A model generated the notes under the pieces. It was given only the letters and a program-made list of their open reading frames with translations, made no database searches and was not told the DNA's origin. From contig JANWLD010000001.1 of the NCBI GenBank assembly GCA_025451045.1, positions 5,812-69,811 on the forward strand: a DNA stretch of 64,000 bases. Reading direction: 5' to 3'. Made by a program: the position numbers and the translations under genes. Source of the stretch: Candidatus Saccharimonadales bacterium (GTDB lineage: Bacteria; Patescibacteriota; Saccharimonadia; Saccharimonadales; 2-12-FULL-41-12). Positions 4,587 to 63,500 of this stretch are shown piece by piece (the first letter of the stretch is position 1; each line of letters opens with the position of its first letter).

Positions 4587-4661
4587 TGGCGCCCTTGTCT
4601 GGACTCGAACCAGAATCTAATCCTTAGGAGGGACTTGTTCTATCCGTTGAACTACAAGGGC
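4587..4661 (-). tRNA. tRNA-Arg (anticodon CCT)
   Basis: 75-nt cloverleaf: acceptor GCCCTTG/CAAGGGC, D stem GTTC/GAAC, anticodon stem AGTCC/GGATT with loop CTCCTAA, T stem TCTGG/CCAGA with loop TTCGAGT, discriminator G, encoded CCA. Confidence 0.9.
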
Positions 4662-9951: not shown

Positions 9952-9979
9952 GTATGGGGTATAAAGTATTAGGTATGAA
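9952..9979. repeat. heptad array, GGTA flavour
   Basis: GTATGGG GTATAAA GTATTAG GTATGAA: GTA at 9952, 9959, 9966, 9973. Confidence 0.6.
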
Positions 9980-9981
9980 GC

Positions 9982-9998
9982 CAGCGGCTTCGCCGCTG
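9982..9998. other. GC-rich hairpin downstream of pilD
   Basis: CAGCGGC-TTC-GCCGCTG, 7-bp stem. No U-tract on the pilD strand. Confidence 0.4.
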
Positions 9999-10025
9999 TT
10001 CTTCTGTCGTTTCATACTATATACG

Positions 10026-10862
10026 TCATACGTTATACAAGCTCAGGTAGTGGTTAATTATTGAAGTGCCGAATAATTGGACGATTATTGCGGCCATTAT
10101 CAGAAACGGCCCGAAAGGAATCCGTGATTTAGGACCGATTTTTTTGGTAAACATCATTGGCAGGGAGTAAACCGTTCCCAGCAGTGACGCCAAAAACAGC
10201 ATCAACAGGGCCGGCCAGGGGCCGCCGACGAGCAACCCGAGCAAAAAGCCAAGCTTAACATCGCCGCCGCCTATCCAAGAGCCTTTTGAGACCTGAAATA
10301 GCACATAAAACAGCCCGCCGCCTATCAACATCCCAATGATACTACTCTTTATAATATCGGTGTCCTGAGCGGCTAACGCACTGATGACTACACCTAGTAT
10401 CGCAATAAATATTAGAGGAAAAATTACCTTATTCGGTAATATCATATATTTTATATCATATATGGTTAGTATCATGAAGCCAGCTACAAACACCAGCCAA
10501 AGGGCAAAAGCAGCTGCATTTTGGCCCGATGACAGGTCATACGGCCAAAACAAGTAGGAAAACACGAACAGTAGCACCGTAGAGGCCTCTACCAGCGGAT
10601 ATTGCGGACTGATAGGCTGATTACAATACCGGCATTTTCCGGCTAGTATCAGCCAGCTAAATAGCGGTATCAGGTCTTTGGCGCCCAACATATGGCCGCA
10701 GTGCGGACAAAGGCTTCGGCCGCTTCTGATGGAATATTTAGCCCTTTCGCTGTTAGCCGCCTTGGGATGTTCTTCCCGCCAGTGCAAACGATACACAAAA
10801 GCATTTATAAAACTTCCCAGGCACAAACCAAGAATAACCAAGCCGATTATTATCATTAGCAA
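10026..10862 (-). CDS. pilD: prepilin peptidase / N-methyltransferase (A24 family)
   Basis: 278 aa polytopic membrane protein. Zn-finger CPHCGH...CRYC and catalytic-Asp motif GGGDVKL. Confidence 0.9.
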   Translation of the reverse strand: MLMIIIGLVILGLCLGSFINAFVYRLHWREEHPKAANSERAKYSIRSGRSLCPHCGHMLGAKDLIPLFSWLILAGKCRYCNQPISPQYPLVEASTVLLFVFSYLFWPYDLSSGQNAAAFALWLVFVAGFMILTIYDIKYMILPNKVIFPLIFIAILGVVISALAAQDTDIIKSSIIGMLIGGGLFYVLFQVSKGSWIGGGDVKLGFLLGLLVGGPWPALLMLFLASLLGTVYSLPMMFTKKIGPKSRIPFGPFLIMAAIIVQLFGTSIINHYLSLYNV

Positions 10863-12676: not shown

Positions 12677-12695
12677 GTCGCAACCTCCGGTTGCT

Positions 12696-12768
12696 TAGGT
12701 TCTAGCGAATAGGGACTAGTGAATAGGCCAAACCCTAAAACCTCTAACCTATGACCTATGACCTTATG
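12696..12768. repeat. inverted pair of heptad arrays (TAG x5, then CCT x5)
   Basis: TAG at 12696, 12703, 12710, 12717, 12724. CCT at 12734, 12741, 12748, 12755, 12762. Followed by hairpin ATGATGT/ACATCAT at 12766-12792. Confidence 0.75.
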
Positions 12769-12793
12769 ATGTTGAGTAAAGCGAGACATCATT

Positions 12794-13883: not shown

Positions 13884-15680
13884 TTACGCGTTATCCTCCG
13901 CCGCCACGCGGTTAACTTCGGCTATTGAGGTATATCCGGCCAGTGCCTTAAGGTAACCGTCTTCTCTCATAGTTACCATGCCATTAGCTACCGCCGCTTT
14001 TTGTATTTCGGTGCTTGTGGAGTGTTTGAGTATCAGTTGTTGAATCATCTCATCCACCTGAAAGACCTCGTATAACCCCATGCGACCTTTGTACCCCCCT
14101 GGTGTCTCCGGGCTATCTTTACCCTTGAACAAAGTATAACCGTTTTGGCTGGCCAGAGGCAAGTCCGGGAAACCGAGATCTTCAATGACAGCTTTTCTTG
14201 AAGCCTCGTCCTTTGGTAGCAAGCGGCCGATACTTTTTTGTACGGCTTCCGTTTCGATAACATCGGACTGATATTTTTCCTTGCTGTCAGCTAGCCGGCG
14301 TACCAGCCGCTGGCCGATGACAGTATGCACGGTCGAGGCTATCAAAAACGGCTCTATCCCCATATCGAGCAACCGCGGCAAGATGCCCGCAGCCGAATTG
14401 GTATGAAGAGTAGAAAATACCAAGTGGCCGGTCAATGCGGCCTGTACAGCCAACGTAGCGGTTTCTTTGTCGCGGATTTCTCCAATCATTACCACATCGG
14501 GGTCCTGGCGCAGGATTGATCTTAGGCCAGACGCAAAGGTCAAGCCAACTTCCGGATTAACTTGTATCTGGTTAATCCCGTCCATTTTATATTCCACAGG
14601 GTCTTCAAGCGTAACGATATTTATAGTGTCATTTTTTATTTCCTGGATAAGCGCGTACAACGAAGTTGACTTGCCCGAGCCGGTCGGGCCGGATGTAAGT
14701 ATCATTCCGTTTGGTCTTTTAATACTTCTTCTAATGGTCCGAAGCGCGCGGCCATGATAGCCCATGTCTTCAAGCTTTAGGCTGGTGCCGGTCTTGTCCA
14801 GCAACCTGATAACAACTTGCTCCCCCCATACGACTGGCGATATAGCGATACGCAAATCAATAGCAGTATCCTGATCGATTGCCACAGTAAATCCGCCGTC
14901 TTGAGGTATTCTGTGTTCATCAATTTTTAGATTGCTCAAGATTTTTATTCGGGAAATCAATGGCGGTTCTGTGGATTTTGGAAGTTTCATTATTTCGCGC
15001 AAAACGCCGTCTATCCGACAGCGGATTTTTAGTTCATGTTCCAGCGGTTCAATATGGACGTCACTAGCGCGGTGCTTGGCGGCATATTCCAAAATAGTGG
15101 AAAGTGCCTTGCTGATTGGAGAATCTTCTACGATGGTTTTTATTTGGGTTTCAGCTTTGGTTTTGGTTTTGTCAACTAGCAGTTGCTGGACATCTATGGA
15201 GTCGCTCATTGCCTTGGCCACGTCTGCTTCTACATCGTCGGCATATTGGCGCAAGACTTGTCTTATACCTTGCTCGCTGGCTGTGTAAACTTTAATCGGG
15301 CGGTTTATCCTCTTCGCCAGATAATCCACGGCCTGGACGTTGTCCGCGTCCAACATGGCTACTACCAGCCTGCCCTTTATTTGTCCAAGCGGTACGGCCA
15401 TGTATCTTTCAGCTATTTCCTTTGGTATTACCCTTAGTAATCTTTTATCAATACGCGCGTCCATCAGGTTTACATACGGTATATGATTGACTTTCGCGAT
15501 AATCTTGGTCAAGGCTTCGTTGGGTAAATGGCCTTCCTTTACCAAAAATCCGAAAAAGGGCGTAGATGAAGTCTTGGCTTTTTCTTTAAGAACAGCCAAT
15601 TTAGCATCTGTAAGATACCCCTCTTTGACCAAGTTTTCTTCTACCATTTTCTGGCTAGCTACTGATAAAACACTACTCAT
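13884..15680 (-). CDS. pilB: type IV pilus assembly ATPase (GspE/PilB family)
   Basis: 598 aa. N-terminal GSPII-like domains, Walker A GPTGSGKST, STLHTNSAAG. ATG overlaps the stop of the upstream four-helix-bundle ORF (ATGA). Confidence 0.9.
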   Translation of the reverse strand: MSSVLSVASQKMVEENLVKEGYLTDAKLAVLKEKAKTSSTPFFGFLVKEGHLPNEALTKIIAKVNHIPYVNLMDARIDKRLLRVIPKEIAERYMAVPLGQIKGRLVVAMLDADNVQAVDYLAKRINRPIKVYTASEQGIRQVLRQYADDVEADVAKAMSDSIDVQQLLVDKTKTKAETQIKTIVEDSPISKALSTILEYAAKHRASDVHIEPLEHELKIRCRIDGVLREIMKLPKSTEPPLISRIKILSNLKIDEHRIPQDGGFTVAIDQDTAIDLRIAISPVVWGEQVVIRLLDKTGTSLKLEDMGYHGRALRTIRRSIKRPNGMILTSGPTGSGKSTSLYALIQEIKNDTINIVTLEDPVEYKMDGINQIQVNPEVGLTFASGLRSILRQDPDVVMIGEIRDKETATLAVQAALTGHLVFSTLHTNSAAGILPRLLDMGIEPFLIASTVHTVIGQRLVRRLADSKEKYQSDVIETEAVQKSIGRLLPKDEASRKAVIEDLGFPDLPLASQNGYTLFKGKDSPETPGGYKGRMGLYEVFQVDEMIQQLILKHSTSTEIQKAAVANGMVTMREDGYLKALAGYTSIAEVNRVAAEDNA

Positions 15681-16072
15681 TTGTTTTGACCTCCGTCAAA
15701 ACTAGGTTCTAGGTCATAGGTTTTAGGTTCTAGATTCTTATATAAGGAAAAAAGCATTTTCTGAATTTCCGTTAAACTGCCTATTAAATTACCGACTTCT
15801 CGCTTGTAAACATCTTGTGCAATCAATAGCTGGGTCTCGAGTTCTCCAGCTGAGCCGCGGGCTATATTTAAAAATTGCCTATACTCTTTTCTGCTATTCC
15901 TTTGATTTCCTTCGGCTATATTACTGGGTATTGAAACTGCGCATCGTTGCAATTGGCTTGATAGACCAAATTGCTCTGTTTTGGGTAGTTTGGCGGTAAA
16001 TTTATAGACATCCTTGGACAATTGAAAAGATTTCTGCCAAACAATTAAGTCTTTGTAAGAAGAAATAACCAT
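15677..16072 (-). CDS. four-helix-bundle protein (S23p / 23S rRNA intervening-sequence protein family, Avd-like)
   Basis: 131 aa. Family hallmarks LIVWQKS, SQLQRCAVSIPSNIAEG, ARGSAGELETQL. The C-terminal 15-18 aa (NLEPKTYDLEPSFDGGQNK) are read from the heptad array at 15703-15737. Confidence 0.85.
   Translation of the reverse strand: MVISSYKDLIVWQKSFQLSKDVYKFTAKLPKTEQFGLSSQLQRCAVSIPSNIAEGNQRNSRKEYRQFLNIARGSAGELETQLLIAQDVYKREVGNLIGSLTEIQKMLFSLYKNLEPKTYDLEPSFDGGQNK
15703..15737. repeat. heptad array, TAGG flavour (left bracket of the four-helix-bundle gene)
   Basis: TAG at 15703, 15710, 15717, 15724, 15731. Contains TAGGTTTTA at 15717-15725. Confidence 0.8.
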
Positions 16073-16114
16073 TAGTATTAACTATAACCTACCGTTAGCG
16101 TTGTATCCATAAAA

Positions 16115-16149
16115 CCTAACCCCTGTCCCCTACAACCTACTCCCTATTC
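16115..16149. repeat. heptad array, CCTA flavour (right bracket, inverted polarity)
   Basis: CCT at 16115, 16122, 16129, 16136, 16143. TAAAACCTA at 16110-16118 is the exact reverse complement of 15717-15725. Confidence 0.8.
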
Positions 16150-16150
16150 T

Positions 16151-17055: not shown

Positions 17056-17792
17056 TAGTTACCTCCCCCTTGGTCAGGTTGTGGAACAAACAGGTTGCTA
17101 GGTTTTTCCGTTTCCGATCGGGTGGTGATTTTCTTTGGTATATTCAATTTTACTGCTTTGCCTTCGCTGTCGCCTTGCGCCAGGTTCTTTACGTTTGAGA
17201 AAATAGCCGGGTCAAAGGAAAACTGAAGTTCGTAGGTTATATCGCCCTGTCCTTGCTGGCTACCGACAGAGTTAACAGCAAATGACTGTAAGACGACGTT
17301 GCTGAACGCCTTGCCCTCGCTCGGGTTGTCGCCGGATACCTGGAAATCAGTAAACTTCAAAGTGTCGGCAAATTTATTAACCGTGCTAAGCGCGTCAGCA
17401 TTGCCCTTAATAACTATAGTGTTCGCATCAAAATCAACGTCAACATCGGAAATAGTCGCTTGCGAAGGAGTAGTTTGGACTAGATAATCAAACAGCCTGG
17501 AGCTAATCACCTTGTGTTCATGGAGCTCCGGCAAGCTGTTAAGTTGGTTTTGTATCGTCAATATTTTGTCCAAATCCTGTTTTTGTTTAAGCTCTTCCGT
17601 AGCCGACGCGATATCTTTGGTCAGTGCCGTAACATAATGCTTCTGTGAAAACCGCACATAGATAAACAGCGCGATAAAGATTACCAAAAAGAAAGCCGAG
17701 ATGATAGCCGAAAGCCCTATCATTAGGCGTTTTTGCCGCTTGGCGCGAATATAGTGAAGTTTTACGTCCGGCAGTAAGTTTAATTGCGCCAT
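17055..17792 (-). CDS. pilN: PilN-like pilus assembly protein
   Basis: 245 aa. The conserved N-terminal INLLP-type motif is present as LNLLPD, followed by a TM helix. Confidence 0.6.
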   Translation of the reverse strand: MAQLNLLPDVKLHYIRAKRQKRLMIGLSAIISAFFLVIFIALFIYVRFSQKHYVTALTKDIASATEELKQKQDLDKILTIQNQLNSLPELHEHKVISSRLFDYLVQTTPSQATISDVDVDFDANTIVIKGNADALSTVNKFADTLKFTDFQVSGDNPSEGKAFSNVVLQSFAVNSVGSQQGQGDITYELQFSFDPAIFSNVKNLAQGDSEGKAVKLNIPKKITTRSETEKPSNLFVPQPDQGGGN

Positions 17793-18832
17793 TATTCGTT
17801 TCTCTCCGCCAGTCCAACCGCTACGCTAAATGTATTTGATACGGCCATAAGTTCGTTTTGTTTCTGCTGGGGATAAGCAACCCCAGCCCACGCATTGCCG
17901 ATTTCCACCTCTATGCCAAATTTGTTAGCAATATACAGGGGAAACTCGGGCAAAGTCGAGGCCGCTCCGGACAAGACAATCCGTTCCATTTTGGCGTCCT
18001 GATACCGGCTTTGGAAGAACTTGATTGACTTGCTTATATCCGTAACCAGCAAATCAACCGTGTTGATAATCCCTTGGTAAATTTGTCCTTCTAGTTTTTC
18101 TTGGCTTAGTCCGAATTTGTAAACAAAATCTTTGGCTTGAACTTCATCTATATTAAGATTCTGGCTGGCCGCCCGGATAAAAGCTTCCGAGCCAGTTGGT
18201 ATGGAACGTGTAAGCCGGGGAATACCTTTCATAGTAATTACTATGTCGGTAGCTGTCTCCCCTACATCAACTAATAGATGGGGCGCTGTAGTTCCGGGAC
18301 GTATCAAAGACCGTGCCAAAGCCAAATTATCCGGCTCAAAGGCTATAACATTAAGGCCGATCCCTTCCAATATATCCAATCTCTTTTCAGCGAAGTCGTT
18401 CGATACGCTGGTTATTAGCACTTCAACCTTGTTAGCATCCACCGGCGAATCGCCCAAAAGGGCCCAGTCTATCTTGGACTCGGCAGGCGGCGTAGGTATA
18501 ATCGAATCCGCTTGATATTCAATAGTCTTTCCTAGCTCCGCCGGAGCCAGACGTTCAATATCAATAATGGAAGTAAAAACCCTTGATGATGGCAAGCCTA
18601 CGGCAACATCCTTGGCATGGATACCGGTAGTAGACAGAAGTTGTTTGATTGCTTGTGCGAGTTTCTGCTGGTCTGCTTTTGAGTCACTTTCGGAAGCTTT
18701 GCGTTCTATCGGGGCAGAGCCATAACGAAGAAGCTGTTTATTGCTCGGGGTGTTAGATAGTTGAACTACCCTAATACCGGTAGTACCAATATCAAGGCCA
18801 AAAAACTCATTTACCCCGCTCAATAAACTCAT
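17792..18832 (-). CDS. pilM: type IV pilus assembly ATPase-fold protein PilM
   Basis: 346 aa. Actin/FtsA-like fold start FGLDIGTTGIRVVQL. First gene of the pilMNO block. Confidence 0.85.
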   Translation of the reverse strand: MSLLSGVNEFFGLDIGTTGIRVVQLSNTPSNKQLLRYGSAPIERKASESDSKADQQKLAQAIKQLLSTTGIHAKDVAVGLPSSRVFTSIIDIERLAPAELGKTIEYQADSIIPTPPAESKIDWALLGDSPVDANKVEVLITSVSNDFAEKRLDILEGIGLNVIAFEPDNLALARSLIRPGTTAPHLLVDVGETATDIVITMKGIPRLTRSIPTGSEAFIRAASQNLNIDEVQAKDFVYKFGLSQEKLEGQIYQGIINTVDLLVTDISKSIKFFQSRYQDAKMERIVLSGAASTLPEFPLYIANKFGIEVEIGNAWAGVAYPQQKQNELMAVSNTFSVAVGLAERNE

Positions 18833-18977: not shown

Positions 18978-19012
18978 AGCTACAAGCTCAAAGCTAAGAG
19001 CTGAGAGCTGAA
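18978..19012. repeat. heptad array, AGCT flavour (left bracket of the four-helix-bundle pseudogene)
   Basis: AGCT at 18978, 18985, 18992, 18999, 19006. Confidence 0.75.
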
Positions 19013-19028
19013 ATGATAAAATGTCCGG

Positions 19029-19373
19029 ATGGTTACCCAATCGTTCAAAGATCTAATCGTCTGGGAAAAATCAAATAAGCTGGCCGTGGATATTTATAAA
19101 ACCTTTTCTAGTTGCAAGGACTTTAGTTTTCGAGACCAAATACAACGAGCGTCTGTATCTATTATGAATAACATTGCCGAAGGTTATGCCCGAAGGAGTG
19201 ATGCCGCTTTCAAGAATTTTTTAAAAATTGCCAAAGGCTCAGCGGCATAAGTTGAGTCTATGCTTTTTCTAGCAGAAGAATTAGAATACATCAACAAGCT
19301 ATCCCAAGAAAAACTAACTGAGCAAACAGAAGAGGTGTCAAAACTGCTTTCCGGATTCATAAAAAAGCTCTAG
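19029..19373 (+). pseudogene. four-helix-bundle protein gene interrupted by a single in-frame TAA
   Basis: The 73-aa ORF (LIVWEKS, ASVSIMNNIAEG, AKGSAA) stops at TAA 19248-19250, exactly where the family and the intact paralog have Glu (GSAGELETQL). The same frame continues VESMLFLAEELEYINKL...KKL to TAG 19371-19373. Confidence 0.75.
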
Positions 19374-19406
19374 CTCTGGACTCTTAGCTCTCAGCTTTTA
19401 GCTAAA
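19372..19406. repeat. heptad array, AGCT flavour (right bracket, pyrimidine-rich version)
   Basis: AGCT at 19372, 19386, 19393, 19400, with GACT at 19379. Shares AGCTGAGAGCT (as reverse complement) with 18978-19012. Confidence 0.7.
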
Positions 19407-22353
19407 GTACTGGTGGCAAAGTGGTTATGTACTGATAAGGCTGTCCGGTTGAAGCATCATTAAATATCGGGGTATATAGATATAGCTCGGGGCTAAAGTT
19501 GAAAATTTCTGCGGCATTTGTACCGGTTCCGGCTGAAAAATCACTAGGCACTTCCTTAGACGTTGATTCCCGCAAAGAATGGGCTACTCTTGAGAATTTA
19601 ACATTCTTTGCCACGAACGCGCCGTTTATAACCAGCTGGTTACGGCAGTTGGCGTAAAATGTATCAATGTTGGTGTACGGCGTACCATTGTTCTGCGTAC
19701 AGGTGTAGATTACTCCGCCGGTAGCAGCATCCTTAGGCTGGGCTACATACAGCCCATCCAAACGGGTTACAGTATTTTTAATTCTGATATCGCCTTGGGC
19801 GATAATCGCTAGATAACTGCCGGGCTGAAACGTGATATTACCCCTTATAGTTACATTGCCTTTTACGAATATCGTAGCCTGCTTGGTAAACTCTCCGCCT
19901 GCCGTAATCACCAAGTTACCATTTTTTAAGAACTGCGTCGGTTTGCCAGCGTTAAGAGCATCAACCAGATTATTCAACTTGGCAATAGTATTAGAGCCGG
20001 CGGCGGCTTTTTTATAGCCCGTTTTTAGGGTGGAATAAAAATCCTTCGTACAGACAGCTTGGCCCGCGTAGAACCCGCCATCGTTTGGTTGGTCGCTGCC
20101 TCCGCCGCCATTGGCAAGAGTATTGGCAAACGTCAGGCCCGTCGGCCAGGTTGGTGAACTTGTCCTTGTGCTGGCGCTGCCAAAGCCTGATATCTGGTCC
20201 AGGGCAATCGCCGCGAACTGCACGCCCGAGCCGCCTTTGGTGGATTCTGTTGACCTGTAAGCGCTTATCTTCTGGGCATTGCCGGTCGTATCACACGTAT
20301 CTCCGGTTCTGAAGTTACTGCCGCTTACTACATCCGCGCCATAAGCTTTCAGATACGGCCGGTCATATATATACTGCTGGGCTTTTTGGGCACAGTTACC
20401 TTGTGTATCAGCCGAGAAGTTATTGCCTGGCCCTATCCAGCCAAAAGTCTGGCCGACACAAAAGTCATTGTCGTCCATAAAGTATTTATCGCCAGCATGG
20501 TTAGGCCGCGGATCGGTACTCCACTGATAAACAACAGGAGTAGAGTTGCGTCCGGACTGGCTGTTAATTATCTGATTAACGCCTCCGTAAAGTTTCTTTC
20601 TCGCTTTGGCGGTATAATCAACCGATATATTCCCATTGTATGGAGGATCCGAAGGTATTCCAAAGAAGGGTCCGGGGGCAGCCCTACCACTGTAAGTTAC
20701 ATTATTAGGGTCTTCGGCCGTAGGTGATAAGTCTACAGAAGTAGAAAGGCTAAGGTCAAATCGTTTGTATACATCATAAGAAGTAGGGGTGCAATCAGCC
20801 ACTACCAGATCGCTACCTTGTACTCCTGGATTGGGATCAAAGTCATAATACAGCTTAGCTCCGACTCCATAATTGCCTATATTCCACCCTGGTTCAACAA
20901 TGCCATCTGAGCCGTCCCATGTGTTCCACTCGTCTGGGTCACCTTTAGGAATTCCGTCTGGAGCGGCCGGATTGTACCAGAAACCAACCGGACTACCCGG
21001 ATTGCTTGAAAGTATTAGAGGTCTGCCGTCAACTTTTGCCGGAAGTGGATCCACTCCTTCTGGAGTACCGTTATTATGAACATGGGCCGTGACACCAAAT
21101 CCACTGCGTGATTGCACTCCATTAGGCCTGCCCGATACATTTCCCTGCACACTTAAATCACAACTTGCGTTATAACAAGTGTATGTATGAGTATTATTTG
21201 ATGGATCATAACCATTATCTATACCCGTTGGTTCATACCAGAAGTAGCTGGTGCCATTACGTTTATGCCATTTTCTAATTACTTGAGTAGTTATAGTTTT
21301 AGTATGGGGTTTATAGAACCAGGTTTTGTCCTGATTATAACCAGGCCCTCCGTTCAACACAGCATAATCCCCGCTAGCAGTTTTAGCGTCGCCGGGTTGA
21401 GGGACTAATACATTTCCATTTGCGTCTGTTACTCTTACATATGTCTCAGTATCTCTCCATCTTGGAGAGCCGTTAGGTGTGCCGGCACCTGTATCATATG
21501 CTCCCCACCCGTTTACATATAGTTTTTCACAACGACCAACCGTGATCGGAGGGGTAGGATTATGTGCATTAGGATGCCAAGTCAGATTAATCAATACAGT
21601 AGCGCCATTTGTTGTTTTAAAATGCCTATTTATGTCTGATCCTTGATATATTGTAGTCCCCCTATCTATTATCTGAATCGTCCAATTGCCTCCATATCTG
21701 CCTTCCTCGCCGGGTGGATTATTAATAGACGATATCCAAAAATCTGTTGCTTTGAAACTATTTGAGCTAATGTCCCACTCCTCGCAGTCTAAAACCCAGC
21801 CATTTCCAAATTGGGCAATCTTCCCGTTTGGCCGCATACAGGGTACGGCATTTTCGGCGGCAGGTGGGCAATCAGCAGTATTGCCCGGGCCAAGGACACT
21901 CCAACCATCACAGCCATAACTTACATAGCCTGATTGGTAGCCACCTAAACTCCCATCCCAACCTATTCTCTCCCCTGTCTTAAACCAATGCTGGCTGTCG
22001 CGTCCTTTTGTACCCACCGGCCATTCAAAAATTCTGGCATCTCGATTATAAGTACTCGGGTCAACATCACTGGGAACCCCGTAGTTACCCGCAGGAAGTT
22101 TAGATTTTAACTCATAGCCAACATTTATAGGGTCCCCTTTAGTATTGACGGCATGTACTCTAAGCCCGGCCATGCCATGTGCGCTCTGCCCGGAAGCAAT
22201 ACCCCAATACTGACTGGGGTTATCTTGGGCGGAACCGTTTTCCGGGGCCCATGGACTACAATCAAGTGCGGAAACCTTCCCGCTGGGCATCAATAAAAAC
22301 ATACCGGTAAAGGCTACTATCGCGACAATTATTTTAGTTTTCAGACTAAACAT
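19402..22353 (-). CDS. 983-aa secreted/surface protein, no recognisable family
   Basis: ATG 22353 gives MFSLKTKIIVAIVAFTGMFLLMPSGKVSALD (signal peptide). The ORF-track GTG 22431 lies inside the upstream gene. Rich in G/N/T/W/Y/P with many Cys. The C-terminal third has beta-helix-like repeats (VKGNVTIRGNITF, IIAQGDIRIKN, LVINGAFVAKNVKF). Confidence 0.7.
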   Translation of the reverse strand: MFSLKTKIIVAIVAFTGMFLLMPSGKVSALDCSPWAPENGSAQDNPSQYWGIASGQSAHGMAGLRVHAVNTKGDPINVGYELKSKLPAGNYGVPSDVDPSTYNRDARIFEWPVGTKGRDSQHWFKTGERIGWDGSLGGYQSGYVSYGCDGWSVLGPGNTADCPPAAENAVPCMRPNGKIAQFGNGWVLDCEEWDISSNSFKATDFWISSINNPPGEEGRYGGNWTIQIIDRGTTIYQGSDINRHFKTTNGATVLINLTWHPNAHNPTPPITVGRCEKLYVNGWGAYDTGAGTPNGSPRWRDTETYVRVTDANGNVLVPQPGDAKTASGDYAVLNGGPGYNQDKTWFYKPHTKTITTQVIRKWHKRNGTSYFWYEPTGIDNGYDPSNNTHTYTCYNASCDLSVQGNVSGRPNGVQSRSGFGVTAHVHNNGTPEGVDPLPAKVDGRPLILSSNPGSPVGFWYNPAAPDGIPKGDPDEWNTWDGSDGIVEPGWNIGNYGVGAKLYYDFDPNPGVQGSDLVVADCTPTSYDVYKRFDLSLSTSVDLSPTAEDPNNVTYSGRAAPGPFFGIPSDPPYNGNISVDYTAKARKKLYGGVNQIINSQSGRNSTPVVYQWSTDPRPNHAGDKYFMDDNDFCVGQTFGWIGPGNNFSADTQGNCAQKAQQYIYDRPYLKAYGADVVSGSNFRTGDTCDTTGNAQKISAYRSTESTKGGSGVQFAAIALDQISGFGSASTRTSSPTWPTGLTFANTLANGGGGSDQPNDGGFYAGQAVCTKDFYSTLKTGYKKAAAGSNTIAKLNNLVDALNAGKPTQFLKNGNLVITAGGEFTKQATIFVKGNVTIRGNITFQPGSYLAIIAQGDIRIKNTVTRLDGLYVAQPKDAATGGVIYTCTQNNGTPYTNIDTFYANCRNQLVINGAFVAKNVKFSRVAHSLRESTSKEVPSDFSAGTGTNAAEIFNFSPELYLYTPIFNDASTGQPYQYITTLPPVL

Positions 22354-23293
22354 AGACGTTATACTCCAGACGTTTTTTGGCCTCTTCAATATATTGTTTG
22401 AAGCCCGTCTTAGCACCACCGCCAGATGCACTGTCTAAATTAATGATTACAAAATAGGATTCAGCCGTACTGTCGCCATTTTCGGAATCTGACGCCCTGA
22501 CTATAAAAGGTCCGCTCGTTTGCCCTGTTTGCAAGAGCTTGCCGTTTTGCCGGATAGAATTTATATCAATAAGCTCAAATGGCTCTGAAGCAGTATCAAA
22601 CATGCCGGAATGGCCCAGCGTGGGATAAACTTTTTTGCCGACTATCGGATCATTCTGTTCAATTTTCATTGCCTGTTCAAAAGTAATTTTACCGGAGTTT
22701 ATATTATCACGTAGTCGAGTTATCAGATCCTGCGCGTATTTTTTGTCTTTGGCGATAGCCAACGAGTTGCCTAATTTAGGGTCGGCGGCCTTTTCTTCTG
22801 GCAATAATGCGGATTTATAAGGTACATGTCGGCTAAAATGAGCTACTAAAAACTTTCCTTTATAAATACCCCTGTTATTAGCAGTTAATTTATTAAAGTA
22901 AGCTTGGTTGACCTTGTTCTGGTAGGCATATTTATTTTCGATCTTTTGTTTTTCAATCCCTTTGCCCCATTGTGCTTCAATTTCTTGGTCGCTGACTGTA
23001 ATATTCTGCTCTTTTGCCAATTCTTCCGATAGATATTTATCGGCTAGTACTCCAGCTGCATCATGGTTACTTATCTCTTGGTTATTGCCTTTTAAATCCC
23101 GTACTTCGTCTTCATATATCTTGTGTCCGGCGGCTTGGGCATAGATTTTGCTATTAGACTTGTTTACTTTGTCGCCAAAAATCATCCAGCCAACGCCGAC
23201 TAAAACAGCAAGAACCACTATAGTTAAGCCGATGATTCTCTTATTTTTGAAGTTCGGCTTTTTTATAGATGCCGGGAGTTTTAGTTTTGACAT
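22346..23293 (-). CDS. membrane-anchored SurA-N/parvulin-like chaperone candidate
   Basis: 315 aa, TM IIGLTIVVLAVLVGVGWMIF. Overall pattern is similar to the PPIase at 2837-3913 but with a degenerate parvulin region. An 8-nt overlap (ATGTTTAG) with the 983-aa gene suggests translational coupling. Confidence 0.45.
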   Translation of the reverse strand: MSKLKLPASIKKPNFKNKRIIGLTIVVLAVLVGVGWMIFGDKVNKSNSKIYAQAAGHKIYEDEVRDLKGNNQEISNHDAAGVLADKYLSEELAKEQNITVSDQEIEAQWGKGIEKQKIENKYAYQNKVNQAYFNKLTANNRGIYKGKFLVAHFSRHVPYKSALLPEEKAADPKLGNSLAIAKDKKYAQDLITRLRDNINSGKITFEQAMKIEQNDPIVGKKVYPTLGHSGMFDTASEPFELIDINSIRQNGKLLQTGQTSGPFIVRASDSENGDSTAESYFVIINLDSASGGGAKTGFKQYIEEAKKRLEYNVYV

Positions 23294-26302: not shown

Positions 26303-27384
26303 GTCTATCGATTGGGATTGTGGGATTGCCAAATGTCGGCAAATCCACGCTTTTTAACTCCTTAACTGGCAATATGATACTAGCCGCCAATTACCCATTT
26401 GCCACGATTGAGCCGAATACCGGCATAGTGCCGGTTCCCGACCCGCGCCTGGAAAAACTGGCCGAAATGTATAGTTCAAAAAAAGTTGTTCCTGCAGCAG
26501 TCACCTTCGTAGATATAGCCGGCCTAGTAGCCGGCGCAAGCGAGGGCGAAGGCCTCGGTAATCAGTTTCTTGGTCATATCAGAAGCTGCGCGGCTATCTG
26601 CCATGTCGTCAGGGCTTTTGAAGATAGCAACGTCCAGCATGTCGACAGCGTACATAGCCCTAAAAAAGACATTGAAACTATAAATACTGAACTAGTCCTC
26701 GCCGATTTACAAACTATTGATAAAAGATTGGCAAAAATTGAAAAGGAAGCCAAAGCGAACCCAAAAATCCGGCCGTTTGTTGAAGAAATCAAAAAAGCAA
26801 AGGGCGTATTGGACGAAGGCACGCCACTTTTTGCCAGCTCTTTGCTCTCTGCTTTTAGCTCCGAGCTCCTGGCTGACTTGCAGCTTATAACAATGAAACC
26901 TGTAATCTACTTATTTAACGTGGATGAAACTACTCTAGCGGACGAGAAAAAACAGGCTGAATTGAAAGCTTTGGTCGGTAATGCCAAAGCTGTATTTGTC
27001 TGCGCCAAACTGGAGGAAGAACTTAAAGGCCTGTCCGACGACGAAGCACAAGAGTTACTTCAAACCTACGGCGTCAACGAACGCGGCCTGGACAAAGTCA
27101 TCCATAGCGCTTACGAAGCGCTGGGTTTGCAAAGCTTTTTAACTGCCGGGGAGAAGGAAGTCCGTGCCTGGACAGTTAAAAAAGATGCGACCGCGCCGCA
27201 AGCCGCCGGCGTAATCCATACCGATTTCCAGCGCGGCTTTATCGCCGCCCAAGTGATAAATTATGATGACTTGGTATCGAGCGGCTCGGAAAGCGCGGCC
27301 AAAGCCGGCGGGAAAGTCGCAACCGTTGGCAAAGACTACATAATGCAACCCAACGACGTAGTGGAGTTCAGATTTAATGTGTAA
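26299..27384 (+). CDS. ychF: ribosome-binding ATPase YchF
   Basis: 361 aa. G1 GIVGLPNVGKSTLFN and a C-terminal TGS-like domain. ATGA overlap with the doc stop. Confidence 0.9.
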   Translation: MSLSIGIVGLPNVGKSTLFNSLTGNMILAANYPFATIEPNTGIVPVPDPRLEKLAEMYSSKKVVPAAVTFVDIAGLVAGASEGEGLGNQFLGHIRSCAAICHVVRAFEDSNVQHVDSVHSPKKDIETINTELVLADLQTIDKRLAKIEKEAKANPKIRPFVEEIKKAKGVLDEGTPLFASSLLSAFSSELLADLQLITMKPVIYLFNVDETTLADEKKQAELKALVGNAKAVFVCAKLEEELKGLSDDEAQELLQTYGVNERGLDKVIHSAYEALGLQSFLTAGEKEVRAWTVKKDATAPQAAGVIHTDFQRGFIAAQVINYDDLVSSGSESAAKAGGKVATVGKDYIMQPNDVVEFRFNV

Positions 27385-27391
27385 GACTTTG

Positions 27392-27419
27392 AGCTCTAAG
27401 CTTTTAGCTGTAAGCTAGG
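27392..27419. repeat. heptad array, AGCT flavour
   Basis: AGCT at 27392, 27399, 27406, 27413, between the ychF stop and ABC ATPase ATG 27427. Confidence 0.65.
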
Positions 27420-32277: not shown

Positions 32278-32305
32278 TTTCGCTCCTTTTCAGTCGCTTA
32301 GTTTA

Positions 32306-32369
32306 TAGGGGTTAGGTTTTAGGGGTTAGGTAGTTTGCTAGAACCTAGTCCCTAGCACCTTTAACCTAC
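32306..32369. repeat. inverted pair of heptad arrays (rpsR|efp junction)
   Basis: TAG at 32306, 32313, 32320, 32327. CCT at 32344, 32351, 32358, 32365. 32325-32367 is identical to 32625-32667. Confidence 0.8.
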
Positions 32370-32574: not shown

Positions 32575-32598
32575 TTATGTTCTCCTTTCAGTTGAACT

Positions 32599-32669
32599 TA
32601 GTTATTAGTTGCTAGTTGTTAGTCGTTAGGTAGTTTGCTAGAACCTAGTCCCTAGCACCTTTAACCTGT
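32599..32669. repeat. inverted pair of heptad arrays (ssb|rpsR junction)
   Basis: TAG at 32599, 32606, 32613, 32620, 32627. CCT at 32644, 32651, 32658, 32665. Confidence 0.8.
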
Positions 32670-61829: not shown

Positions 61830-63500
61830 CTACATCTTTTCTGGTATTACAATGCCGAGTAGTCTTAAGCCACTGCTTAGTACGTCTGCATAGCTCCTTA
61901 CAAGTTGCAGTCGTAAGTCCGCGCGCGGATCATCTATAACCCGATTGGTCTCATAAAAGCGATTAAAGGTTTGGGACAGTTCATAAAGATAAGTACAGAT
62001 ATGGTGTGGTGACAGTTCTTCCAAAGCCAGAGTAAGCACTTCCGGATACATCGAGATTTTCCGCGCCAACGAGCGTTCTTTTGGTTCTAAATCCAAGCTC
62101 TGGGCTCTGGGCTCTGGGCTCTGGACTTTGTCTAATATGCTTTTTGCCCGAACATAGGCATATTGCAAATATGGCCCGCTGTTGCCTTCCAGACTGGCTG
62201 ACTGTTTTGCATCAAATATTACGTCACTGCCAAGGCCTGATTTTAGGAATGAATATTTGACCGCAGCCAACACTATTTCGGGCGTAACCGCCGGGTTTAC
62301 CTCTTTGGATGAGTTTTCGGCCAAGTCCAATATATCGACGGCTTTGATGATATTACCTTGGCGGCTGCTCATCTTTTGCGCTCCCGGCAGTTTGACCATG
62401 CCATGGGTTAGATGGGTAGTTTTAGAGGCCAGCTCCGGCGCGAATTTTTTGATACTTGCCAATACAACCTGCATGTACTGGCTTATCTCGTTGGCGGTTA
62501 TTACTATTGAGCGATCAAAAGCGTAATCTTTTTCTTTTTGCAGGATTAGTCCGACTTCTTTGGCTTCATAAGTCGGCAACCCTTCTTTGGTTATGAACAC
62601 GCGGGTATGCAGGCCGTCTTTTTCGCCCTCGTAGACTACCGCGCCGTCAGACTCCGAATAGATTTTCGGGGTGTTTTCTTTGACTTTCGCCTGCCCTAGC
62701 TCAGCAACGGTACTTTCCGGATAATATTTTTCAAACTTTATGCTGACCCGAGCATAGAACTTATCAAAATAATCATAGCTCCAAGCTCGGGTTGTCCAAT
62801 AAATATTACCTAGCGGCGAATCTTCGTCTTTTTTAGTCGCTACCTCATATATTCTTTTGTTTAATTCGGCGATTTCGCTTTTGGCTTGTTCGCTTTCCTC
62901 ATATGCCTTATTGCCTTTGGTGTAACATTCGCCCAGCCAATCGGCTCGTTTATCTTCATTAATCTTGTCCAGCTCATCTGGTTTTTCGCCGTCCAGCTCC
63001 TTGATTACCGTCCAGAGGCTTTTGGCGACATGAAGCCCCACGTCGCCGCCGTAATTTACCCGGTGCACCTGCGCGCCAGCCGCTTCAAAGAGATTGGAAA
63101 TAGCATCACCGACGACTGAGGTATAAAGATGACCAGCGTGCAGGACCTTAAATGGATTCGGGTCGGAATACTCGGTCACGACTTTTTTACCGGACAGACT
63201 TTTGGCCGGTTTATGCGCGTTTTTGATTGAGGTGAACAAAACCGAATCCTTGAGAGTAATATTAATAAAGCCAGGCCCGGCTACGCTGACCTCGGCTATC
63301 TGTTCGTTTTTCTTTAGTTCCAAGGTGATTTGCCGGGCAATTTCAACAGGGCTTTTACTTAGTTCTTTGCTTAATTTCAAAGCCACGTTCGAAGAAAAAT
63401 CCCCGAACTTCTCCTCCGGCCGACTTAGCTCAACTTCAACATTACTATTAAACAGTTCCGAACAAACTGTTCTTATTTGTTTTTTTAACTCCTGCACCAT
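61830..63500 (-). CDS. argS: arginine--tRNA ligase
   Basis: 556 aa. HIGH-type HAGHLY, KMSKS-type KMSSRQG, and a DALR anticodon-binding domain. Contains an in-frame heptad array. Confidence 0.95.
   Translation of the reverse strand: MVQELKKQIRTVCSELFNSNVEVELSRPEEKFGDFSSNVALKLSKELSKSPVEIARQITLELKKNEQIAEVSVAGPGFINITLKDSVLFTSIKNAHKPAKSLSGKKVVTEYSDPNPFKVLHAGHLYTSVVGDAISNLFEAAGAQVHRVNYGGDVGLHVAKSLWTVIKELDGEKPDELDKINEDKRADWLGECYTKGNKAYEESEQAKSEIAELNKRIYEVATKKDEDSPLGNIYWTTRAWSYDYFDKFYARVSIKFEKYYPESTVAELGQAKVKENTPKIYSESDGAVVYEGEKDGLHTRVFITKEGLPTYEAKEVGLILQKEKDYAFDRSIVITANEISQYMQVVLASIKKFAPELASKTTHLTHGMVKLPGAQKMSSRQGNIIKAVDILDLAENSSKEVNPAVTPEIVLAAVKYSFLKSGLGSDVIFDAKQSASLEGNSGPYLQYAYVRAKSILDKVQSPEPRAQSLDLEPKERSLARKISMYPEVLTLALEELSPHHICTYLYELSQTFNRFYETNRVIDDPRADLRLQLVRSYADVLSSGLRLLGIVIPEKM
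62096..62130. repeat. heptad array, AGCT/GGCT flavour, inside the argS CDS
   Basis: AGCTCTG GGCTCTG GGCTCTG GGCTCTG GACTTTG. Encodes KVQSPEPRAQSL on the minus strand. Confidence 0.8.

Follow-up and report, generated by a model that had tools for sequence, protein, structure and literature searches.

A broken four-helix-bundle gene framed by inverted heptad arrays in a Saccharibacteria pilus cluster, and the same layout around its relatives in many bacterial phyla

The 23S rRNA of Leptospira, like that of Coxiella burnetii, contains an intervening sequence with an S23p open reading frame (ORF). RNase III excision of the Coxiella sequence has been shown experimentally; three or four GACAGAT heptamers, in a copy number that varies among strains, lie directly upstream of its S23p ORF, and the 5' cut falls at the first heptamer repeat (PMC4990558). 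Tandem 7-bp repeats, mostly intergenic and often arranged as convergent pairs capable of forming hairpins, have been described as the cyanobacterial STRR, the Xanthomonas GGGAATC and the Beggiatoaceae TAACTGA repeats; the Xanthomonas arrays have a modal size of about four full units, and the TAACTGA repeats are mainly direct and lie upstream of start codons (PMC2670836, PMC4692102, PMC4679880). Avd of the diversity-generating retroelements (DGRs) is a four-helix bundle homologous to the proteins considered here (PMC10053308), and its pentamers are positively charged barrels, described as 'similar to S23 ribosomal proteins', which contact a defined RNA element (bioRxiv 10.1101/2023.10.23.563531). 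The papers on STRR-type repeats make no link to PF05635 genes, and in the literature searched the only mention of gene and heptads together is a comment on the Coxiella intervening sequence, without any general description.

REP elements paired with a RAYT transposase (REPINs), and likewise MITEs, have a gene set between inverted short repeats, which are also found many times over in intergenic regions without it. TRAP and HutP are ring-shaped RNA-binding regulators that read regularly spaced NAG triplets, and the UAG-N4 repeats read by HutP have a 7-nt period.

The locus described here lies in a Saccharibacteria genome, within the window (the whole 64,000-nucleotide stretch of DNA that was analysed), between the stop of a large ORF and the putative promoter of pilM in a type IV pilus cluster. 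It is a cassette composed of a four-helix-bundle gene (gene 2) and two flanking arms; a paralogous cassette (gene 1) lies nearby. Their features are as follows.

15677 to 16150, minus strand: intact paralogous cassette, with gene 1 at 15677-16072 (131 aa; Pfam E = 1.5e-37)
17792 to 18832, minus strand: pilM, with PilM_2/FtsA domains on its homologues
18978 to 19012, plus strand: 5' arm, five AGCT-cored heptads whose 3-nt spacer varies (TRF period 7)
19013 to 19028, plus strand: spacer with TGaTAAAAT, in which a -10-like box (19016-19021) ends 7 nt before the ATG
19029 to 19373, plus strand: gene 2 (PF05635 / TIGR02436), 114 codons and a TAG stop, now a pseudogene
19248 to 19250, plus strand: in-frame TAA, in place of the invariant Glu E74 of the GSxxEvE motif
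19366 to 19406, plus strand: 3' arm, AGCTCT(a), AGCTCTG, GACTCTT, AGCTCTC, AGCTTTT and AGCTAAA (TRF period 7)
19402 to 22431, minus strand: large ORF, 1009 aa when started at a GTG; its TAG stop forms the first array triplet

With the TAA read as X, gene 2 matches Pfam PF05635 with E = 6.5e-34 (116.8 bits; cut-off 33.8) across the whole profile, positions 1-106 of 106, and TIGR02436 with E = 5.4e-32 (110.2 bits; cut-off 24). Its closest proteins come from Candidatus Saccharibacteria / Saccharimonadales, and its identity to intact 114-aa Saccharibacteria proteins reaches 76%. E74 is invariant in 26 of 26 aligned sequences, and the TAA can be obtained from GAA by one G-to-T change. The frame, with its single in-frame TAA, is not intact, and gene 2 is a pseudogene unless the TAA is an assembly error. 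It is not the remnant that the original prediction had seen in it: the gene is full-length, with one nonsense codon, rather than truncated. The copy in the window is a dead gene, of little consequence for the host. Judged from its letters alone, the placement of the -10-like box would be the layout expected for a leaderless mRNA, and a TAnnAT box, read by eye, stands 6-7 nt before the ATG in nine Saccharibacteria loci (L001-L007, L085 and L086). A consensus promoter scan did not report the -10-like box, because the scan requires a -35 hexamer.

In the 5' arm AGCT starts at 18978, 18985, 18992, 18999 and 19006, and the units are AGCTACA, AGCTCAA, AGCTAAG, AGCTGAG and AGCTGAA. In the 3' arm it starts at 19372, 19386, 19393 and 19400; the unit at 19379 is degenerate (GACTCTT), and an extra AGCT stands out of register at 19366. 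Re-reading the sequence confirmed the in-register positions that the original prediction had given for both sides; the AGCTs in its list for the right array are all present, but the one at 19366 had been missed. The two sides do share sequence in inverted orientation, as had been claimed: AGCTGAGAGCT (18999-19009) is the reverse complement of 19386-19396, and the top inverted repeat, 18978-19009 against 19372-19403, is 32 nt long and 81% complementary. Equally sound was the claim that the right array overlaps two stops, namely the TAG at 19371-19373 that ends the 114-codon frame, and the CTA at 19402-19404, which is the TAG of the minus-strand large ORF. For this convergent gene the predicted stop stands, whereas the predicted length of 983 aa is that from the first ATG, the ORF being 1009 aa long from the GTG.

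The AGCT heptad arrays around gene 2 are far from chance. A pattern of four AGCTN3 units with at most one mismatch occurs three times, against none in each of 100 dinucleotide-preserving shuffles. In the window, exact 4-mer chains of at least three copies number 18 at period 7 and 0-6 at periods 5, 6 and 8-11, and 50 kb of E. coli K-12 contained no period-7 exact 4-mer chain. Minimum-energy and centroid folds pair both arrays on both strands (z = -2.5 and -2.0). The AGCT/GACT units of the 3' arm resemble the arrays beside orthologous genes in L001-L007, L085 and L086.

The large ORF has no Pfam match, so that the giant surface protein of the original prediction is without confirmation. It is syntenic with ORFs of 929-1019 aa in four related genomes (L081, L082, L084 and L086), and is conserved upstream of pilM. 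A pilM promoter-like site (TTGAGC-17-TATGAT, 18991-18963, minus strand) adjoins gene 2's 5' arm at its outer end and runs into it, and the tgcttatgatataatt block at this site is conserved in relatives. The paralogous gene 1 is 44% identical to gene 2; the 5' arm of its cassette, made of TAGG heptads, lies within 16073-16150, whereas the CTA heptads of its 3' arm (15702-15738) are translated as the C-terminal tail of gene 1, the stop of which overlaps the ATG of pilB.

Heptad arrays also occur in the window without a family gene, as listed below.

9952 to 10038, no strand: hairpin with GTAT / ATAC heptad arms and a small GC stem in its loop
12680 to 12770, no strand: hairpin with TAGG / CCTA arms and a 5-nt loop, between pilT and pilC
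27382 to 27416, plus strand: solo AGCT-flavoured array, of the flavour of the gene 2 arms, between ychF and an ABC ATPase gene
32298 to 32367, no strand: heptad hairpin between efp and rpsR
32598 to 32667, no strand: heptad hairpin between rpsR and ssb

The hairpin between pilT and pilC is an insertion relative to L081 and L084, and the two hairpins that flank rpsR are identical over 38 nt (32630-32667 and 32330-32367). Because the same arrays occur as gene-less hairpins, they are not exclusive to the family gene. Arrays away from a family gene number about 0.17 per kb in the surveyed genomes; further paralogues as the source of these extra arrays can be set aside, since only five of 201 distant arrays are near another PF05635 ORF. 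Solo arrays match the flavour of the local cassette in 22% of cases, compared with 3.5% for other loci, and 78% differ in flavour from the neighbouring cassette.

The gene 2 cassette resembles the 23S rRNA intervening sequences in its PF05635 protein, in the position of the ORF between complementary stem-forming flanks, and in the decay of the ORF, which is also seen in Coxiella. The stem expected of such a sequence is present (32 nt, 81% complementary, in minimum-energy and centroid folds). However, in comparison with the Coxiella sequence the gene 2 cassette has heptad arrays on both sides and is antisense to its host operon. Location within 23S rRNA was ruled out, the cassette lying between the large ORF and pilM; an Rfam scan of the window found one tRNA only, and real 23S motifs were found around the gene in none of 80 related loci. 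The gene-less hairpins of the window fit the description of STRR-type hairpins, being intergenic inverted pairs of tandem 7-bp repeats, although the host is a Saccharibacterium rather than a heterocyst-forming cyanobacterium, and the flavours (AGCT, TAGG and GTAT) differ. An Avd of the DGR kind was likewise rejected: the Avd model NF033474 scores 24.2 bits on gene 1 (cut-off 80) and does not match gene 2, and there is no reverse transcriptase beside either gene, the neighbours being pilus genes and the large ORF. REP/RAYT elements and MITEs share with the cassette the layout of a bracketed gene and the potential to form hairpins. In contrast to the RAYT, the cassette gene is not a Y1 transposase and is without a known catalytic domain, no transposase lies between the gene 2 arms (the only ORF there is the four-helix-bundle gene), and the repeats are periodic arrays whose sequence differs from site to site within a genome. 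With TRAP and HutP the likeness is an analogy only, limited to one AG core per subunit; the proteins have unrelated folds, and no binding has been demonstrated for the family.

The association of gene and arrays was surveyed at 77 usable loci encoding relatives, from about 20 phylum-level groups, with 663 ORFs of at least 150 aa from the same loci as controls; an array was scored if a period-7 chain lay no further than about 120 nt before the gene or 150 nt after it. Such a chain is present beside 66 of the 77 family genes (86%) and 91 of the 663 controls (14%; Fisher p = 1e-38), and on both sides of 39 of the 77 (51%) against nine controls (1.4%; Fisher p = 1e-34). Chains with periods of 5, 6, 8, 9, 10 or 11 accompany only 0-5 of the 77 (0-6%). 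The original prediction, that gene and arrays co-occur beyond what local composition would give, is supported by these counts and by their specificity for period 7; it would have been refuted had arrays been equally common next to random genes, and at 86% against 14% occupancy they are therefore not. On this survey the gene-in-heptad-hairpin layout is typical of the PF05635 family across many bacterial phyla. Copies on IMG/VR contigs also carry arrays, and all 80 surveyed loci lie between protein-coding genes. Fifty-one of 62 cassettes are co-oriented with both neighbours, at a median gap of about 70 nt on each side; one of the 62 is antisense to its operon, as at gene 2. In the comparison of heptad flavour with protein identity between phyla the values were 53.2% against 46.7%, a result reached by none of 1000 permutations. 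Heptad flavour thus follows the phylogeny of the protein even from one phylum to another, so that the gene and its arrays travel together; the difference in flavour between the arrays at gene 2 and those at 15677-16150, pointed out before, holds and follows the same rule.

Comparison of related genomes indicates how the cassette comes and goes. Two proteins with 76% and 73% identity to gene 2 (P0001 and P0002) have their genes at the corresponding position between the large gene and pilM, and one of these two genes is inverted. The site is empty in L081, where TAGCT occurs once, whereas in the window TAGCT stands on both sides of about 429 nt, and L082 keeps only the 5' array and about 25-27 codons of the paralogous cassette. 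Taken together, the empty site, the inverted copy and the deleted remnant mean that gain, inversion and loss affect the cassette as a whole. The gene 2 cassette is absent from the nearest relatives; it is old at its site, the closest relatives of the gene sharing the spacer in two other genomes. For both sites in the window, some genomes of 82-85% PilM identity have a cassette and others lack it, and at the gene 2 site the cassette has been retained across lineages with 64-70% PilM identity. Of the marks of a transposon, gene 2 has inverted arms; the flanking TAGCT could be a target-site duplication only on the strength of one comparison (L081), and AGCT is itself the array core. The pilT-pilC junction reads TGAcGTG / TGAcATG in L081 and L084, and is filled by the TAGG hairpin in the window and by a CAATT hairpin in L082. 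At each filled junction GGAGG follows just after the 3' arm. The similarity at this hairpin is suggestive of target-site duplication but not convincing.

The architecture of the arms follows common rules. Arms of the same locus align with a median score of 32, compared with 15 across loci (p = 1e-33), and are thus complementary and locus-specific. Array lengths peak sharply at 30-33 nt, which corresponds to five cores with four intervening spacers, and fall off steeply from 34 nt onward; arrays of 30-33 nt make up 51 of 153 beside genes and 76 of 391 at gene-less sites. Mismatch rates at the seven heptad positions are 0.05, 0.02, 0.07, 0.12, 0.20, 0.15 and 0.14, a concentration within heptads that exceeds chance (p = 0.001) and sets a core apart from a variable spacer. 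Of the 5' arm consensus heptads 91% contain AG, as do 87% of those of the 3' arms after reverse complementation; for CT the share is 25-28%. The polarity is fixed, with a 5' AG arm and a 3' CT arm: among gene-sized and solo pairs there are 29 AG-then-CT pairs and no pure CT-then-AG pair. Array copy number differs between lineages, the orthologous site in L085 and L086 having arrays of 8-11 units. RNA-specific selection of the stem was not detected: G:U mismatches between the arms number 85 and A:C mismatches 92, without the expected excess of G:U, and mirrored unit variants between arms were no more frequent than in unit-permuted arrays (24.8 against 24.4, p = 0.36; 21 loci, low power). A role of the arrays as stop-codon insulators was rejected, because 5' arms close three frames in 38% of cases, compared with 39% for letter-shuffled heptads, and TAG is present in only 42% of consensus units, compared with AG in 91%.

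We consider the chances evenly balanced that the region is a decaying cassette of the intervening-sequence type outside rRNA, the arms of which pair in read-through RNA. On this reading the cassette would be a PF05635 gene in the loop of a long hairpin, with about five AG-core heptads in each arm. In a transcript reading through from the neighbours, on either strand, the arms would be expected to pair over about 20-30 bp, with the ORF looped out, and such a duplex may be a substrate of RNase III; this cleavage is inferred, having been shown only for the Coxiella homologue. Excision or insulation by RNase III would explain how the cassette is tolerated inside operons and stable RNAs. Several observations do not fit. 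The mechanism leaves the 7-nt ruler unexplained, since an RNase III stem needs no 7-nt period, AG core or length of 30-33 nt. The apparent -10 box between the 5' arm and the ATG in Saccharibacteria implies that the gene's own mRNA would lack the 5' arm. Furthermore, there is no sign of RNA-stem selection in either the G:U/A:C comparison or the unit permutation, and the antisense orientation of the gene 2 cassette is a rare arrangement (1/62).

Because these two tests gave no RNA-specific stem selection, pentamer-heptad binding is a serious rival, possible in our judgement without reaching even chances: the arrays would be binding sites, the cassette protein reading one AG-cored heptad per subunit and five per oligomer. 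The protein may bind DNA, the 5' array then being an operator immediately ahead of the -10 box and the 3' array its mirror counterpart, or single-stranded RNA, in which case binding competes with arm pairing; it would also bind, in trans, gene-less hairpins that match in flavour. The length mode of five cores, seen beside genes and at gene-less sites, the core-and-spacer architecture, the prevalence of AG (91% and 87% of arms) and the fixed polarity would all be expected of such sites, and the absence of G:U bias and of mirrored compensation suits motif arrays better than a selected stem. Two family members in the PDB, 2gsc, which is XCC0516 of Xanthomonas campestris, and 2rld, each hold five chains, and the Avd homologue is pentameric and contacts a defined RNA element (bioRxiv 10.1101/2023.10.23.563531); however, binding data exist for no family member outside the DGRs, and the invariant residues Q37, R40, N48, E51, E74 and E76 are, on our reading only, more suggestive of a site for a ligand or a metal than of a surface for nucleic acid. 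Heptad flavour co-varies with the protein, and solo arrays match the local cassette in 22% of cases rather than 3.5%, although the remaining 78% differ. Binding to five cores also does not account for the arrays of 8-11 units in L085 and L086, for the whole heptad, beyond its core, being common to both arms, or for the good arrays still present around the gene 2 pseudogene.

That cassette and gene-less hairpins are mobile DNA, with the arrays as terminal inverted repeats, the hairpins as non-autonomous, MITE- or REP-like derivatives, and an unidentified activity aiming insertion at gene junctions, we regard as unlikely. The patchy occurrence of cassettes at the two window sites in genomes of 82-85% PilM identity would be explained in this way, as would the pilT-pilC junction that is bare in L081 and L084 and holds different hairpins in the window and L082, and the exact 38-nt repeat linking the hairpins on either side of rpsR; the symmetry of G:U and A:C mismatches likewise suggests constraints at the DNA level. 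The TAGCT on both sides of the filled site, against one in the empty site of L081, points the same way, but it rests on one comparison with AGCT the array core, and target duplication at pilT-pilC is not established. Moreover, no transposase, integrase or nuclease was found in or near the cassettes examined, copies within a genome differ in flavour and so give no sign of recent bursts, and the cassette is kept at the gene 2 site across lineages with 64-70% PilM identity. A last possibility, to which we give very little credence and which is already disfavoured, is that there is no functional link, slippage-born heptamer repeats becoming terminator or stabiliser hairpins and the gene being merely tolerated or retained. 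According to the account of Mrazek (2007) in PMC4679880 and PMC4692102, heptanucleotide repeats are the commonest long simple repeats in many bacteria, and slippage was proposed as their origin; gene-less arrays are indeed frequent (about 0.17 per kb, with 5/201 near a further paralogue), and copy number varies between lineages, as it does in Coxiella. However, neutral slippage would not lead one to expect the AG core, the fixed polarity or the modal length, and the absence of a link is difficult to reconcile with occupancies of 86% against 14% (on both sides, 51% against 1.4%), with two arms that are at each locus always the same heptad, inverted, or with a flavour that follows protein phylogeny across phyla.

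At 50% identity the PF05635 family falls into 32,695 clusters; its annotation does not go beyond 'four helix bundle protein', and outside DGRs its function is not known. For heptamer repeats, too, the papers cited above give no established function (PMC2670836, PMC4692102, PMC4679880). The present survey joins the two by quantitative rules: arrays beside 86% of the genes, arms that complement each other, AG in the core, a fixed polarity and some five units. We tentatively suggest, in the absence of binding data and with more doubt than confidence, that PF05635 proteins and inverted arrays of about five AG heptads are one pan-bacterial protein-repeat system, in which a pentamer reads five heptads and the gene-less hairpins are non-autonomous or trans-bound partners. 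If true, such a system would underlie three phenomena that were described apart from one another and lack an explanation: the excess of heptamer tandem repeats in bacteria, the cyanobacterial STRR and Xanthomonas-type heptamer hairpins, and the ORF-bearing intervening sequences of 23S rRNA. If the link holds, annotators could recognise the cassettes and their gene-less derivatives, and both the function of the family and the role of heptamer repeats become testable by simple experiments.

Inverted heptad arrays enclose a broken gene (19029-19373), and on the plus strand of the window their two arms read as follows.

18978-19012, plus strand: 5' arm, five AGCT-core heptads (AGCTACA, AGCTCAA, AGCTAAG, AGCTGAG, AGCTGAA)
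19366-19406, plus strand: 3' arm, pyrimidine-rich (AGCTCT(a), AGCTCTG, GACTCTT, AGCTCTC, AGCTTTT, AGCTAAA)

The AGCT positions listed in the original prediction are right, but an AGCT at 19366 and a degenerate unit at 19379 had been missed. The arms show 81% complementarity over 32 nt. Four successive AGCTN3 units occur three times in the real window, compared with 0 in 100 dinucleotide-preserving shuffles. When a chain is defined as at least three exact copies of one 4-mer at a given spacing, the window contains 18 chains at period 7 versus 0-6 at periods 5, 6 and 8-11; in the 50 kb of E. coli K-12 scanned, no exact 4-mer chain at period 7 was found.

With its in-frame TAA read through, the enclosed frame matches the whole of the PF05635 profile (23S_rRNA_IVP; E = 6.5e-34) as well as TIGR02436 ('four helix bundle protein'; E = 5.4e-32). 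Because the profile is covered entirely and the TAA (19248-19250) falls at an alignment position where 26 of 26 sequences have Glu, the gene, as judged from sequence, is full-length and was killed by one nonsense codon. Its nearest relatives (up to 76% identity) come from Candidatus Saccharibacteria, where the 114-aa protein is intact. The window also contains an intact paralogue (15677-16072, 131 aa, 44% identical), with TAGG/CCTA heptad arrays on either side. This paralogue is translated through its own 3' array (15677-15745), in which the frame-0 unit is TAT and no stop occurs, and CTAGAAC-type units encode its C-terminal tail, LEPKTYDLEPS. The array is followed by GGAGG, and the TGA of the paralogue overlaps the ATG of pilB (ATGA; 15677-15683).

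The proposed association of PF05635 genes with inverted period-7 arrays was surveyed in relatives, scanned at one genome per species. The 80 loci are the best 80 of at least 563 confirmed matches to this query, mostly from metagenome-assembled genomes, and are not a random sample of a family of 32,695 clusters at 50% identity; flanks were usable in 77. Our own grouping from record titles gave about 20 phylum-level groups, among them Saccharibacteria, other Patescibacteria, Bacteroidota, Ignavibacteria, Acidobacteriota, Planctomycetota, Verrucomicrobia and Firmicutes. Within this best-matching set, a period-7 chain lies near either end of 66 of the 77 PF05635 genes versus 91 of 663 control ORFs, whose start codons are approximate (Fisher p = 1e-38), and on both sides of 39 of 77 versus nine of 663 (Fisher p = 1e-34). 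The observation is confirmed and the association supported. Chains at periods 5, 6 and 8-11 lie beside only 0-5 of the 77 genes, and most of the 11 'negative' loci (e.g. L001 and L004) have degenerate arrays recognizable by eye. The same layout is repeated in five loci on IMG/VR contigs. None of the best 80 genes is located in a 23S rRNA gene; the family name records the place of first sighting, not the usual location. Of 62 cassettes (gene plus flanking arrays), 51 are co-oriented with both neighbours, with gaps of about 70 nt (median), and only one is antisense to both, as in the window. The -10-like boxes ahead of the gene, in the window and in L001-L007, L085 and L086, were identified by eye. 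In five Saccharibacteria loci (L001, L002, L004, L005 and L007; about 130 nt past each match) the gene apparently lies directly upstream of a recF-like gene, by eye, and the 3' array both encodes the protein tail (S/P-A-K-D-Y, stop) and contains the ATG of the next gene (…TAGCTAATGGCT).

The arms of one locus carry the same heptad, inverted, and the heptad varies from locus to locus (median arm alignment score 32 within loci versus 15 across, p = 1e-33). Arrays are most often 30-33 nt long, a sharply defined mode equivalent to five cores and four spacers, with a steep drop from 34 nt. AG is present in 91% of 5' arm consensus heptads and 87% of reverse-complemented 3' arms, and CT in 25-28%. 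Polarity is fixed, with an AG-type 5' arm and a CT-type 3' arm in 18 gene-sized and 11 solo pairs, and neither class contains a pure CT-then-AG pair. Within the heptad, AGN is conserved and the final three positions vary (mismatch rates by heptad position 0.05, 0.02, 0.07, 0.12, 0.20, 0.15 and 0.14; concentration p = 0.001). Heptad type, or flavour, tracks protein similarity even across phyla: pairs matching at six or more of seven heptad positions have 53.2% protein identity versus 46.7% overall, a value reached in 0 of 1000 permutations.

Similar arrays occur without the gene. Away from PF05635 genes, the surveyed loci contain 0.17 period-7 arrays per kb versus 0.01-0.04 at periods 5, 8, 10 and 11, and a further paralogue lies near only five of 201 distant arrays. 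Many of these gene-less arrays are inverted pairs with the polarity and the 30-33-nt mode of gene-flanking ones, and 22% have the flavour of the local cassette, versus 3.5% for other loci. The window has them in the gaps separating ssb, rpsR and efp and in the pilT-pilC gap, and also after ychF and dnaG. One hairpin resembles a terminator nested within a heptad hairpin, as far as its sequence indicates:

9952-10038: gene-less hairpin with GTAT / ATAC heptad arms, its loop containing a GC-rich stem (CAGCGGC-TTC-GCCGCTG) and then TTCTTCT

GTAT and ATAC arrays also surround the pilM promoter region in the related locus L082. An exact 38-nt repeat, GTAGTTTGCTAGAACCTAGTCCCTAGCACCTTTAACCT (32330-32367 = 32630-32667), makes up the loop and the 3' arm in each of the two rpsR-flanking hairpins, whose 5' arms are unlike (TAGGGGT/TAGGTTT versus TAGTTGN); since the repeat is exact while the 5' arms differ, this points to a putative recent event around rpsR in which half a hairpin was duplicated or converted. 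A perfect GCTCTGG x4 (62097-62124) lies within the arginyl-tRNA synthetase ORF (61830-63500, minus strand). Dense multi-flavour arrays of up to 12 units surround short ORFs in two Ignavibacteria loci (L020, 2300-8510; L019, 6845-12864), where the unit tccttgtacaacgtaATTTTTAATTTGTCATTTTTAATTT occurs three times. The sole Rfam match in the whole window is a tRNA gene (4590-4661, minus strand). The window's gene-less hairpins fit what has been published on heptamer hairpins of unknown function, namely the cyanobacterial STRRs (PMC2670836), the GGGAATC arrays of Xanthomonas, which most often have four units and include 70 convergent pairs (PMC4692102), and the general excess of heptanucleotide repeats, as cited in PMC4679880. 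A CRISPR-repeat link in a figure legend of PMC10910872 may be real or may be a case of heptad arrays mistaken for CRISPR repeats.

The gene order large ORF-pilM-pilN-pilO-78-aa gene-pilB is kept in genomes with 82-85% PilM identity. At the studied site, the spacer of L081 is 80 nt long and contains TAGCT once, whereas in the window two copies of TAGCT enclose about 429 nt of array-gene-array; the gene is also absent from L082 and L084. Its two nearest relatives occupy the same spacer in the remoter L085 and L086 (PilM 64-68% identical). The L086 cassette is antisense to the operon, like the window copy (18978-19406), and that of L085 (520-1060) is sense, with the large ORF still next to the purine-rich arm and pilM next to the pyrimidine-rich one. 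By eye, the arrays of both have about 8-11 units, not five; those of L085 (about 8 and 11) alternate AGCT and AGTC cores. From the same-spacer relatives, empty sites and opposite orientations, we infer that the cassette is old, was lost in one clade and was flipped at least once, and that array lengths change. The paralogue's site is empty in L081 and L084, and in L082 (8685-8866) retains the 5' TAGG array and about 25-27 codons (MAISSYKDLVAWQKSFQPSKDVYKL; called as a 39-aa ORF) before a deletion to just before pilB. The pilT-pilC junction reads TGAcGTG / TGAcATG in L081 (about 11630) and L084 (about 11591); a TAGG hairpin occupies it in the window (12680-12770) and a CAATT hairpin in L082 (11791-11921), each followed by GGAGG ahead of the pilC start. 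In L086 (2589-2717) a CAATT/AATTG heptad hairpin, then GGAGG, separates pilM and pilN (annotated as a 54-aa ORF); these genes overlap (TAATG) in the window.

In the Coxiella 23S intervening sequence, 3-4 GACAGAT heptamers precede a decaying S23p ORF, and RNase III excises the element, cutting 5' at the first repeat (PMC4990558); this is the only experimental precedent for a cassette mechanism. Because the arms pair with each other in both the minimum-energy and the centroid structure predicted for each strand, most cassettes lie in co-directional strings and the Coxiella precedent exists, we commit to reading the studied cassette as of the intervening-sequence type, whose arms would pair in read-through RNA into an RNase III substrate; cleavage is inferred, from modelled folds and analogy. 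This leaves the 7-nt ruler unexplained, and selection on an RNA stem found no support either in mismatch type (G:U 85 versus A:C 92) or in unit compensation, variant units not being mirrored between arms. The arrays may instead be sites read by an oligomer, the cassette's own protein, a possibility that we hold only tentatively, at less than even confidence, in the absence of binding data. The core-plus-spacer pattern, universal AG, fixed polarity and five-unit mode are as expected for such sites; the family's PDB entries 2gsc and 2rld have five chains each, and the homologue Avd, a DGR protein, has been described as a basic barrel of five subunits, 'similar to S23 ribosomal proteins' (bioRxiv 10.1101/2023.10.23.563531).

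A transposon-like element would fit the cassette's presence in some genomes and absence from others, together with the repeated TAGCT, but no enzyme accompanies it. Neutral slippage alone is disfavoured as the origin of the arrays, since both arms of a locus share one inverted heptad that differs between loci, nearly all arm heptads contain AG in a fixed AG/CT polarity, and flavour follows protein similarity across phyla. Heptads as three-frame stop signals were tested and rejected.

As far as we found in the open-access literature, a gene-in-heptad-array rule has been described only for Coxiella, and the TIGR02436/Pfam curators may have noted it. The studied copy itself is unremarkable, a dead example of a cassette that is very common, and the strong, general result is that PF05635 genes reside between inverted arrays of about five heptads with an AG core.
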